The translations under genes were made by a program, and so were the position numbers. Of a stretch of DNA of 6,320 nucleotides, positions 1-6,210 are shown in pieces. Origin of the DNA: a virus. Taxonomy: Duplodnaviria; Heunggongvirae; Uroviricota; Caudoviricetes. The stretch covers positions 1-6,320 of the IMG/VR virus record IMGVR_UViG_2740892229_000006. The stretch is one strand, 5' to 3'. How positions within the stretch are numbered: the stretch's first letter is position 1; the number at the start of each line of letters is the position of its first letter. The notes beneath the pieces were generated by a model. It was given only the letters and a program-made list of their open reading frames with translations. It was not told the DNA's origin and did not search any database.

Positions 1-251
1 TCCTGCTGCTTTAATGCTGCGGTAAACACACACTTCCAGCTTTCTGCATCCAGCCAGCGACCATGCCATTCAACCTGACGCGAAACGTCACCAAGGCAAG
101 CCCAAAGCTTCCGATTTTGGTCTAAGCTGCGGTTGCGCTCCTGAATGGTTACTACGATTGGTTTTGTTGGGTCTGGAAGGATTTGCTGTACTGCGTGAAT
201 AGCGTTTTGCTGATGTACTGGAGATCGAATTTCAAAGGTTAGTTTTTTCAT
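1..251 (-). CDS. ninB: NinB/Orf-family recombination mediator, N-terminal 83 codons only (gene runs off the left edge of the window)
   Basis: Hand translation of the minus strand from ATG 251-249 gives MKKLTFEIRSPVHQQNAIHAVQQILPDPTKPIVVTIQERNRSLDQNRKLWACLGDVSRQVEWHGRWLDAESWKCVFTAALKQQ with no stop before position 1. This matches the lambda NinB N-terminus as I recall it. SD GGGAGAGGGAAG lies just upstream of the ATG. Absent from the ORF track, presumably because there is no stop inside the window. Confidence 0.8.
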   Translation of the reverse strand, partial: MKKLTFEIRSPVHQQNAIHAVQQILPDPTKPIVVTIQERNRSLDQNRKLWACLGDVSRQVEWHGRWLDAESWKCVFTAALKQQ

Positions 252-265
252 GACTTCCCTCTCCC

Positions 266-299
266 CCAAATAAAAAGGCCTGCGATTACCAGCAGGCCT
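266..299 (-). terminator. Intrinsic terminator after the primase-helicase gene (tR2-like position)
   Basis: Perfect 8-bp GC-rich inverted repeat AGGCCTGC (276-283) / GCAGGCCT (292-299) with an 8-nt loop. On the minus-strand transcript the stem is followed by UUUUUAUUU (complement of plus 268-276). It lies 30 nt downstream of the helicase stop (329-331) and just upstream of the ninB SD. Confidence 0.6.
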
Positions 300-328
300 G
301 TTATTAGCTCAGTGATGTAGATGGTCAT

Positions 329-2316: not shown

Positions 2317-3177
2317 TCACCTGTCGAAAAACACGTAGCCAGTTTTCGATACGGTGATTGCGGATGATGGTTTGGATTGTGGTTGAATGGTTTCTGGCTT
2401 TTCGTCGTTCCAGCGCTGACCGTTGAGGTAGCTCGATGGTAACAACCTGTCGAATCCGAACTGCTTACCATTCCTGCATGCGATGTCTTCTGCCAGCATC
2501 GTGGCAAACTCGCTTGCCGTACCCCTTGTAGTTTTACGCCATTCCCTGAACTGTGTTCTGAATGCCGAAGCTGCGTTTTTCTTCCCGGCTTTCCGCATGC
2601 CTGCACACCAGAATATTTCCTCGAATGCCTTGTCGGTTTCTTCGTGACGGTCAGGTGATTTTTCACACTCCGTCCGAACACTTTCGGACATAGTGTTTTT
2701 ATTATTTCTTTTTTCTTTTGTAATAGTTTCTTTTGTGTGTCCCTGTTTTGGTGACAGCGCTGTCACCGTTTTGGTGACACTTTTTGTCACCAATGTAGTG
2801 ACATTATCACCAGAGTAGTGACACCCTTCTATTTTCCATTCTTCGATGTTCTTGTTAGGACCGATTTGCTGGCCTTCGCGAAGGATAACCTTCATCGCGA
2901 TAAGCTCATTCTTGGCCTTGTTTACCTTCTGTCTTGGCAGCCTGGTAATTTGAGCTAACTGACTATCAGAGATGCGATCCATCTTTTTACCGTAGCCGTA
3001 TGTTTTACGGCATATGGCGTGGGCAACCTTGCTCTGATTTTTCGTTAAATCTGCGCCGATAAGCTCTTCATACAGGGCATTTGCAAGACGGGTATAACCA
3101 TCTTCAACTTCTGCCACACGACGCTCCACAGGCCGTTGTGAAGGCCTTAAATGTGTTACGGTTGCAAGATTACTCAT
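2317..3177 (-). CDS. O: Replication initiator with lambda O-like N-terminal iteron-binding domain and a non-lambda C-terminal domain
   Basis: 286-codon ORF, ATG 3177-3175, SD AAGGAG upstream. Residues about 25-115 ([89 protein letters not shown]) align to the lambda O N-terminal domain as I recall it. Iteron repeats and an AT-rich tract lie inside the coding sequence, as in lambda ori. The C-terminal approx 120 aa do not resemble the lambda O P-binding domain. Confidence 0.85.
2690..2745. other. AT-rich DNA-unwinding tract of the replication origin, inside the O-like gene
   Basis: The run tagtgtttttattatttcttttttcttttgtaatagtttcttttgtgtg is strongly A+T-rich against an approx 50% GC background. 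It lies immediately downstream, in gene orientation, of the iteron cluster, the same arrangement as lambda ori. Confidence 0.6.
2750..2826. repeat. Origin iterons: about four tandem dyad repeats built on GGTGACA/TGTCACC
   Basis: GGTGACAGCGCTGTCACC (2750-2767, perfect 18-bp palindrome); GGTGACACTTTTTGTCACC (2773-2791); GTGACATTATCACC (2798-2811); GTGACAC (2818-2824). Spacing is about 20-24 bp, all in the O-like N-terminal coding region. Confidence 0.7.
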
Positions 3178-3350: not shown

Positions 3351-3629
3351 TCAGGCCTCGAAGAATTCGCCGTTCTTCGGGGCTTTTTCTTTTGTCAGCA
3401 TTCTGGCTACTTTCTTAGCCAGTTCCGCCAACTCCTCGTCTTCAACACCCCATTCAAGAACAGCCAGAAGCATTCCCATTTTGGGGATGAAGCTGTCTTT
3501 CCATCGCGAAATTTGCGATTCATTAATCCCTAACGCGTCGGCAACCTTTCGCTGACCACGTACAGCAATTCGATTCAGGATGTTGCTTGTAATTGCATTC
3601 GCTTTCTTGCGAGTACTTGTAAGTTGCAT
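3351..3629 (-). CDS. cII: CII-like transcriptional activator (lysogeny establishment)
   Basis: ATG 3629-3627 with SD AAGGAAA; stop TGA 3353-3351; 92 aa: [92 protein letters not shown]. The core SQISRWK...[13 protein letters not shown] matches lambda CII. The track's longer start at 3689 is rejected: no SD, and the extension would cover the pRE -10 region. Confidence 0.85.
3355..3393 (+). terminator. Intrinsic terminator on the strand antisense to the cII 3' end (oop-RNA-like terminator)
   Basis: 11-bp stem GCCTCGAAGAA (3355-3365) / TTCTTCGGGGC (3373-3383) with one G-U pair and a 7-nt loop, followed on the plus strand by TTTTTCTTTT (3384-3393). No U-run follows on the minus strand, so it is unidirectional against cII. 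The position matches the lambda oop terminator. Confidence 0.6.
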
Positions 3630-3708: not shown

Positions 3709-3740
3709 GCCCTTTTTCAGGGCTGGGATGTGTAAGAGCG
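3709..3740 (-). promoter_or_regulatory. nutR N-utilisation site (boxA + boxB)
   Basis: Minus-strand boxA CGCTCTTAC (complement of 3732-3740) and boxB GCCCTGAAAAAGGGC (complement of 3709-3723; 5-bp stem GCCCT/AGGGC, loop GAAAA), immediately downstream of cro on the PR transcript. Confidence 0.8.
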
Positions 3741-3748
3741 GGAATGTC

Positions 3749-5101
<1,353 letters not shown>

Positions 5102-5151: not shown

Positions 5152-5219
5152 ACAATGGAGTTTGTTTTTTGCACCTTCGTTTACAATATTTCTTGTTTAC
5201 AACATACAATCTTTCTTGT
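5152..5219. promoter_or_regulatory. Left operator: OL3 (5152-5165), OL2 (5183-5196), OL1 (5206-5219), 434-type sites
   Basis: Plus-strand 14-mers ACAATGGAGTTTGT, ACAATATTTCTTGT and ACAATCTTTCTTGT all fit ACAA-N6-TTGT. Spacing and position relative to pL mirror the OR arrangement. Confidence 0.8.
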
Positions 5220-5231
5220 AATTTTAAGCCA
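5196..5231 (+). promoter_or_regulatory. pL promoter for N and the leftward early operon
   Basis: -35 TTTACA (5196-5201), 17-bp spacer containing OL1, -10 TAATTT (5219-5224). The probable start near 5231 (ATCAGCAGGACGCACTGACC) matches the lambda pL transcript 5' end as I recall it. Confidence 0.5.
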
Positions 5232-5263
5232 TCAGCAGGACGCACTGACCACCATGAAGGTGA

Positions 5264-5294
5264 TGCTCTTAAAAATTAAGCCCTGAAGAAGGGC
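5264..5294 (+). promoter_or_regulatory. nutL N-utilisation site (boxA-like + boxB)
   Basis: boxA-like TGCTCTTAA (5264-5272) and boxB GCCCTGAAGAAGGGC (5280-5294; stem GCCCT/AGGGC, loop GAAGA), about 35-65 nt into the pL transcript and upstream of N. Confidence 0.8.
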
Positions 5295-5404
5295 AGCATT
5301 CAAAGCAGAAAGCTTTGAGTAGCGCGAAATGCAGCTGCAAGACAGCAACCGTGGAGATAAGCATCACGGCGCGTTACTCAAAGCTAACTGACAGGAGAAT
5401 CCAG

Positions 5405-5731
5405 ATTGATGCACAAACACGCCGCCGCGAACGTCGCGCAGAGAAACAGGCTCAATGGAAAGCAGCAAATCCCCTGTTGGTTGGGGTAAGCGCAAAACCA
5501 GTTAACCGCCCTATTCTCTCGCTGAATCGCAAACCGAAATCACGAGTAGAAAGCGCACTGAATCCGATAGACCTTACGGTGCTGGCTGAATACCACGAAC
5601 AGATTGAAAGCAACCTGCAACGTATTGAGCGCAAGAATCAGCGCACATGGTACAGCAAGCCACGCAGTGAAATGGGTGTGACTTGTGTTGGTCGCCAGAA
5701 AATGAAATTAGGCAGCAAACCACTTATTTGA
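5405..5731 (+). CDS. N: N transcription antiterminator, with ATT at the conserved initiation position
   Basis: The in-frame translation from 5408 is DAQTRRRERRAEKQAQWKAANPLLVGVSAKPVNRPILSLNRKPKSRVESALNPIDLTVLAEYHEQIESNLQRIERKNQRTWYSKPRSEMGVTCVGRQKMKLGSKPLI, stop TGA 5729-5731. It matches lambda N (MDAQTRRRERR..., arginine-rich boxB-binding motif), with a divergent C-terminal approx 20 aa. The codon at the expected start is ATT (5405-5407), with SD AGGAGA (5393-5398) 6 nt upstream. The track's ORF begins at TTG 5315, which has no SD and lies within the nutL leader just after boxB. Confidence 0.75.
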   Translation: MDAQTRRRERRAEKQAQWKAANPLLVGVSAKPVNRPILSLNRKPKSRVESALNPIDLTVLAEYHEQIESNLQRIERKNQRTWYSKPRSEMGVTCVGRQKMKLGSKPLI

Positions 5732-5739
5732 GGTGAGAT

Positions 5740-6210
5740 ATGACAAAATCATGGAGCGTACCTTTTCCTGAATCAGAAACTGAACATGATGGAATGCCTG
5801 TTTTCTGGAGATTCCAGGCGACAGTTGAAGAAGATGGGATCAAAATATTCGCACTTCAATATATAGCTTTTCATCAGACAGAGCATTATGCATGGTTGGT
5901 TCCTGCGTATTGGATTGTTAATTTTAAACCAGCACCAAATCAGTGGTTACAGGAATGGAAACAAAGGAGAAATAGATATGCAATTAAGAAAGTAGCAAAA
6001 AATGCAGAAAGATCTTTTGCATTCCCGACGAAGAAACTTGCCATTGAAAGTTTATTGCGCCGAAAGAAATACCATTTGATGAGAATCAAACAAGATTTGG
6101 CTGTTGTATCAACTCTTGTTGATGGGATGAAGAATATTGATACATCAACACCAGATATTGAATATAACTTTGGACACAACCAAGAAACAGAAAATTGGGT
6201 ATTTTATTAG
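5740..6210 (+). CDS. Hypothetical 156-aa protein, AT-rich, translationally coupled to N
   Basis: ATG 5740-5742 is 8 nt after the N stop, with SD AGGTGAG immediately upstream; stop TAG 6208-6210. The coding sequence is visibly more A+T-rich than its neighbours (Lys/Asn/Ile-rich, AAA/ATT codons). No motif I recognise and no obvious transmembrane segment. Confidence 0.65.
   Translation: MTKSWSVPFPESETEHDGMPVFWRFQATVEEDGIKIFALQYIAFHQTEHYAWLVPAYWIVNFKPAPNQWLQEWKQRRNRYAIKKVAKNAERSFAFPTKKLAIESLLRRKKYHLMRIKQDLAVVSTLVDGMKNIDTSTPDIEYNFGHNQETENWVFY

Follow-up and report, generated by a model that had tools for sequence, protein, structure and literature searches.

A rare natural ATT start-codon allele of a lambda-type N antiterminator gene in a lambdoid prophage

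The antiterminator N is the first switch of lytic development in lambdoid phages, and its amount is tightly controlled. In N-defective lambda prophages, such as those carrying N amber mutations, N is lost or reduced and delayed-early expression is blocked at the terminators; single amber mutations in N are leaky. The lambda N leader is highly structured, and N together with Nus factors bound at nutL represses translation of N itself (PMC5725501). Only two E. coli genes, infC and pcnB, are confirmed to start with AUU, and initiation at this codon in E. coli runs at 1-2% of AUG, or at 0.02-3% in other constructs (10.1101/063800). Higher values have been obtained elsewhere: with a good Shine-Dalgarno (SD) sequence, AUU reached about one-sixth to one-eighth of AUG (PMC3592434), and a phage hydrolase gene started at AUU gave about 5% of AUG in a report that also describes preferential inhibition of non-AUG starts by ppGpp and nutrient limitation (PMC5499595).

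Here we describe a lambda-type N gene in which the initiator ATG is replaced by ATT. The window, by which we mean the whole stretch of DNA analysed, comprises all 6,320 bases of contig CCPP01000009.1 from the isolate assembly GCA_000752895.1 and represents the immunity and early region of a lambdoid prophage. Its gene order, ninB-primase-O-cII-cro on one arm and cI-orf-N on the other, matches that of annotated relatives and places N next to the immunity region, at the head of the pL operon. The minus strand encodes ninB, which is cut by the contig end, a toprim/helicase (primase/helicase) gene (329-2209), an O-type replication gene (2317-3177), cII and cro. The plus-strand genes begin with a 434-type cI (4068-4700), which is followed by a 134-residue open reading frame (ORF; 4697-5101), by N and, directly 3' of N, by a 156-residue ORF (5740-6210). 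The 134-residue ORF overlaps the cI stop codon, occupies the rex position and has a signal-peptide-like N terminus; both ORFs are annotated as hypothetical in relatives, and neither gave a Pfam match. Of the annotated relatives, the closest were an E. coli GB089 prophage, at about 98%, and Shigella phage Sf101, which matches 88% of the window at 97.9%; N starts with ATG in both. No Rfam family was matched within the window. Its strongest terminator-like hairpin (3353-3385, plus strand) has a stem of 14 pairs and then a run of T; it is antisense to cII, at the 3' end of that gene, which is where the oop RNA terminator of lambda is found, and it too gave no Rfam family.

Sites for N-dependent antitermination were present for both early transcripts. 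nutL (5264-5294, plus strand) consists of boxA TGCTCTTA (5264-5271) and boxB GCCCTGAAGAAGGGC (5280-5294), while nutR (3709-3740, minus strand), located between cro and cII, carries boxA CGCTCTTA and boxB GCCCTGAAAAAGGGC. The first base of the nutL boxA was found to be polymorphic among the IMG/VR loci L001-L119, with G (GGCTCTTA) at 50, T (TGCTCTTA) at 29 and C (CGCTCTTA) at 27; because this base varies freely in lambda-type phages, the boxA of the window was ruled out as a second defect. The leader from boxB to the SD falls into about six length classes among the IMG/VR loci, ranging from 99 to 257 nt, and measures 99 nt in the window. Within the pL region, two ACAA-N6-TTGT repeats (5183-5196 and 5206-5219, together 5183-5219, plus strand) are presumably 434-type OL operators, judged by the operator consensus of phage 434.

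A strong tR2-like intrinsic terminator was predicted between the primase/helicase gene and ninB (276-299, minus strand), at the position of lambda tR2. Its hairpin lies within the coding sequence of a 26-codon hydrophobic ORF (MTIYITELITG...; 248-328, minus strand), whose counterpart in a second carrier of the ATT allele (locus L103, 6578-6660, plus strand) is identical over the first 33 nt and differs in the hairpin sequence. A counterpart of the terminator is present in L103, so a nin-type loss of the terminator was rejected as a form of compensation for both the window and L103. Since nutL, nutR, the tR2-like terminator and the neighbouring genes are intact and no nin-like bypass is present, the phage should still need N, and passage of the tR2-like terminator in particular should require it.

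The N frame (5405-5731, plus strand) comprises 108 codons plus a stop and opens with ATT (5405-5407) at the position of the lambda initiator ATG, as placed by alignment, Pfam and structure 6GOV. The first-pass annotation had read the frame as a lambda-type N, with ATT in place of the conserved ATG and an AGGAGA sequence 6 nt upstream, and each of these assignments was borne out. When the region was aligned to lambda (J02459) and to E. coli GB089, a G-to-T change at 5407 was the single difference in the surrounding 60 nt; ATG stands at this place in lambda and its relatives. The SD (AGGAGA, 5393-5398, plus strand) and its 6-nt spacing are those of lambda, and the predicted duplex with the anti-SD has an energy of −7.4 kcal/mol. 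The ATT-started product matched Pfam family N36 (PF11438) with 92 bits, residues 2-36 aligning to all 35 positions of the profile, and chain N of 6GOV (lambda N) aligned with its Met1 on the Ile codon at 5405-5407 (E = 3e-58). The product is about 90% identical to lambda N, with residues 2-63 identical, and, codon 1 aside, it is identical to a Met-started N found on at least 1000 contigs of a large protein collection. Predicted accessibility of the SD was 0.63 with ATT and 0.56 with ATG; this change is not meaningful, and an effect of the substitution on RNA structure was therefore ruled out.

The same substitution has a second consequence that the first-pass annotation did not notice. Besides removing the ATG, G to T at 5407 creates a TTG (5406-5408) in the +1 frame, the same frame as the pre-existing ATG at 5409-5411, which had been correctly described as out of frame and followed by a 26-codon ORF. 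The resulting +1-frame ORF (5406-5489, plus strand; 27 codons from TTG 5406 or 26 codons from ATG 5409; stop codon at 5487-5489) shares the ribosome-binding site of N, with spacings from the SD of 6 nt to AUU 5405, 7 nt to UUG 5406 and 10 nt to AUG 5409. This ORF gave no Pfam match and probably competes with N for ribosomes. Frameshifting from it back into N was considered and rejected, as visual inspection of 5406-5487 showed no slippery heptamer and the product of any such shift would be without the arginine-rich motif. Upstream, a 20-codon ATG-started leader ORF (5329-5391, plus strand) stops 13 nt before the ATT, just 5' of the SD; reinitiation from it is no more than a remote possibility, because this ORF has no SD and lies within a predicted hairpin.

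That the allele is real was supported by its recurrence. The first-pass annotation had asked whether ATT recurs in related N leaders, and it does so in two further loci, L103 and L121, with ATG found in nearly all of the others. Three carriers were thus verified in DNA: the window, L103 from IMG/VR and L121 from an ENA metagenome. L103 is a 27-kb metagenome contig whose main stretch in common with the window covers 5379-5700 with one mismatch, the remainder giving few short matches; it differs from the window in its repressor, in its 257-nt leader and in the C terminus of N. L121 is an 899-bp scaffold in which only the part matching 5223-5746 is common to the window, the flanks being unrelated. 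When the start codon was masked, the N segment of the window was identical to 11 ATG alleles, that of L103 corresponded to the window haplotype plus one private synonymous change, and that of L121 corresponded to another common haplotype, also plus one private synonymous change. No further damaging change was present in the N genes of this small sample of carriers, and two synonymous private changes are too few to show purifying selection. No disrupted ORF was found in the 6.3-kb window or in 11.6 kb of L103, the nut sites were intact, and the intact genes of L103 include a lambda-type Q and a holin gene.

The allele is also rare, with a frequency of about 0.1%, and it was not conserved in any clade sampled. 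Among the 119 N loci listed from IMG/VR, 118 start with ATG and one with ATT, and all 24 species-representative contigs and all 55 metagenome contigs have ATG. The N start region was located in 841 of 5,426 complete E. coli genomes, at 895 places, none of which carried the exact 61-mer of the window. None of 52 phage records carrying this N had the ATT allele, and a 33-nt ATT-only probe, designed such that every 28-nt seed spans position 5407 and hence seeds on the ATT allele only, matched neither the 5,426 complete E. coli genomes nor any of 50,697 phage records. A scan of IMG/VR for other non-ATG starts returned only the one ATT locus for ATH and nothing for BNN or AVN, and Thr, Lys, Arg, Leu and Val were absent from the start position in window-type and lambda-type leader contexts. 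The 138-residue product that gene callers derive from the ATT allele was present on two contigs of the large protein collection. Conservation of AUU among orthologues, which would be expected of a gene of the infC/pcnB type, was not found.

Two kinds of side observation were made during these searches. The lambda N start region was detected in assemblies of Marinifilum, Limosilactobacillus vaginalis, Nocardioides, Desulfovibrio piger and Capnocytophaga (L123-L146); to this set Shewanella canadensis and two Pseudomonas add contigs of about 48.4-48.5 kb, and some matches have about 1x coverage. Lambda N in these unrelated species-representative assemblies looks like contamination by lambda control DNA. 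Similarly, the record MW057783.1, named 'Campylobacter phage CJLB-4' (48,361 bp), has lambda N at nearly lambda's own coordinates and looks like lambda itself rather than a Campylobacter phage. Separately, rearrangement has destroyed 2 of the 112 complete N genes sampled from IMG/VR (about 2%), which shows that prophages do retain defective N alleles, with a frequency comparable to that of ATT. In L009, N is shortened to 52 residues, and in L012, it is fused into a 195-residue chimera; the rearrangements lie after about codon 28-33.

By mutation alone, transitions to ATA, GTG and ACG are expected more often than a change to ATT. ATT, or at least Ile, is nonetheless the only start-loss variant seen: besides the three carriers, an exact protein-level look-up turned up one Logan contig (P0031) that encodes the 133-residue ORF of lambda proper, with Ile in the start position. 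The allele is old enough to have entered several mosaic backgrounds. With only ATT or Ile seen where the other changes are likelier, we infer from these three or four cases that a single origin, followed by spread with the 5' part of the N module, fits better than repeated hits.

Published initiation rates allow the output of the allele to be sketched. Once pL is derepressed, the strong SD, being unchanged, should go on recruiting ribosomes. In the N frame they would then meet AUU, which IF3 discriminates against and which has an efficiency of roughly 1-15% of AUG in E. coli. The new UUG (7 nt from the SD) and the AUG (10 nt) in the +1 frame, which share this SD, should capture most initiations and yield a peptide of 26-27 residues; as AUU would be facing a better codon, UUG, at a distance of one base and an AUG at a distance of four, most ribosomes would thus make the +1 peptide. 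N of normal length (fMet-Asp-Ala-Gln...) would be made in a small amount, about 1-15% of that from AUG or less, and perhaps no more than a few percent. Lower N would relieve the nutL-mediated self-repression, by which the loss may be partly buffered. Antitermination would still be weak at the tR1/tR2-like and tL terminators, and lytic development would be slow or inefficient. The +1-frame UUG and AUG could also draw off so many ribosomes that too little N is left to be useful. Nothing in the sequence looks compensatory: the SD is unchanged, the AUG of the +1 frame is still there, and the window and L103 both keep an intact tR2-like terminator. Overall, we favour the reading that the window carries a genuine, heritable ATG-to-ATT allele of lambda-type N that behaves as a strong hypomorph in an otherwise intact early region (probability about 0.5); the sequence itself, its rarity, the independence of the carriers and the intact surroundings are observed, whereas the level of N and the phenotype are what we infer for such an allele.

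Several other explanations were weighed against this reading. A sequencing or assembly error at 5407, which the first-pass annotation had raised, would account for a single-base difference in a 6.3-kb draft-assembly contig, and every carrier does come from a draft or metagenomic assembly. Three independent assemblies, which differ in source and in flanking DNA and represent at least two N haplotypes, nevertheless have the same base change; that of the window was made from an isolate, and the L103 contig is 27 kb long. An error is now very unlikely, and we reject it on the finding of ATT in L103 and L121. Alternatively, N might be made as an N-terminally extended protein from an upstream in-frame codon, either GTG (5351-5353, plus strand) or TTG (5315-5317, plus strand). 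The frame is indeed open from 5315, and gene callers emit the 138-residue product. As the first-pass annotation had argued, however, both codons are poor starts: neither has an SD (−0.7 kcal/mol for GTG 5351 and −1.8 for TTG 5315, against −7.4 for the N SD), and both fall within a long leader hairpin predicted between nutL and the N SD (5311-5385, plus strand; 16-bp outer stem), TTG 5315 on its 5' arm. This hairpin, known from prediction only, occupies the place of lambda's structured N leader. Moreover, ATG alleles occur behind the same leader, and the open frame is thus no peculiarity of ATT. In L103, there is no in-frame canonical start upstream of the ATT, and the first in-frame canonical start is a TTG about 24 codons inside N, use of which would delete the RNA-binding motif. 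Given L103 and the weakness of the GTG and TTG sites, an extended N is therefore no general answer, and we regard it as highly improbable.

Two further readings concern how much N the ATT allele makes and whether selection has acted on it. The allele could be effectively null, with AUU behind the +1 UUG and AUG giving too little N and the prophage locked in with an N-minus phenotype; it might then persist because the gene is silent and free of selection during lysogeny, or because loss of N spares the host on induction. In keeping with this, the allele is extremely rare, with no example in isolated phages or complete genomes, other broken N alleles occur at about 2%, AUU efficiency can fall to 0.02% of AUG (10.1101/063800), and neither a compensatory change nor a terminator loss was seen. 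Such rarity is what would be expected of a deleterious allele in general, and an effective null would fit it equally well. A null class should, however, also include ATA, ACG, GTG-negative and other changes, whereas all three DNA-verified start changes are ATT; the allele has lasted through recombination into at least three mosaic contexts and two haplotypes, and there is no further decay in N or in neighbouring genes. We consider an effective null possible and place it behind a strong hypomorph. At the other extreme, AUU may have been selected as a low-N setting that ties N to the level of IF3 and to ppGpp or nutritional state, as in infC and pcnB, with a bias toward lysogeny or later lysis in poor hosts. 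In its broadest form, an N lineage passed among lambdoid phages by recombination would have N throttled at AUU, with the +1 UUG/AUG as a decoy, so that the lysis-lysogeny decision or induction is tuned at initiation. ATT alone was seen, it is the codon used by infC and pcnB, it is spread across several phage backgrounds, and the stronger effect of ppGpp and nutrient limitation on non-AUG starts (PMC5499595) points the same way. Against this stand the frequency of about 0.1%, the lack of conservation in the sampled clades and the absence from characterised phages; AUA and AUC, which would serve equally, are unseen, which suggests one origin rather than repeated selection. Selection for low N is a long shot, both as a response to host state and in the broader form. 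Most likely, the ATT allele is a rare natural weak-start variant for which the known initiation rules suffice, and no new mechanism is involved, as AUU initiation and N-defective prophages are both well known.

Read as a strong hypomorph, the allele offers a ready-made natural test of the least N that a lambdoid phage can live with, and it could show whether such minimal changes quieten prophages. It also bears on annotation. Gene callers mis-annotate the allele as a 138-residue protein, and a prophage-completeness tool would call the region intact even though its key regulator, N, may be nearly silent.

Compared with lambda N (J02459; PDB 6GOV, 5LM7 and 1QFQ), the gene of the window retains the arginine-rich N36 domain in full, the identical residues 2-63, the SD and its spacing, nutL upstream, nutR after cro, and the place of N as the first gene of the pL operon. 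It differs in its initiator, ATT instead of ATG, and in its C-terminal ~20 residues and leader length (99 nt from boxB to the SD), which belong to another common allele class; unlike in lambda, the immunity is of the 434 type and the replication genes are of the Sf101/P22-like type. In N amber lambda prophages, the defect is a nonsense codon, whereas here it would lie at initiation. With infC and pcnB, the locus shares an AUU behind an SD at a working distance (−7.4 kcal/mol, 6 nt), with IF3 sensitivity and limited initiation to be expected. In infC, however, the AUU is conserved and is a target of autoregulation, while here it is a rare allele of a gene that normally starts with AUG and is known from sequence. 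One-base initiator changes in T4 rIIB (AUG to AUA) and T7 gene 0.3 (AUG to ACG) lower synthesis and do not abolish it (PMC5499595), and a natural ATT start attenuates expression of ebpA in E. faecalis (PMC4447247). Those phage mutants arose in the laboratory and the ebpA start is a conserved bacterial one, whereas the window carries a circulating natural allele with overlapping out-of-frame starts.
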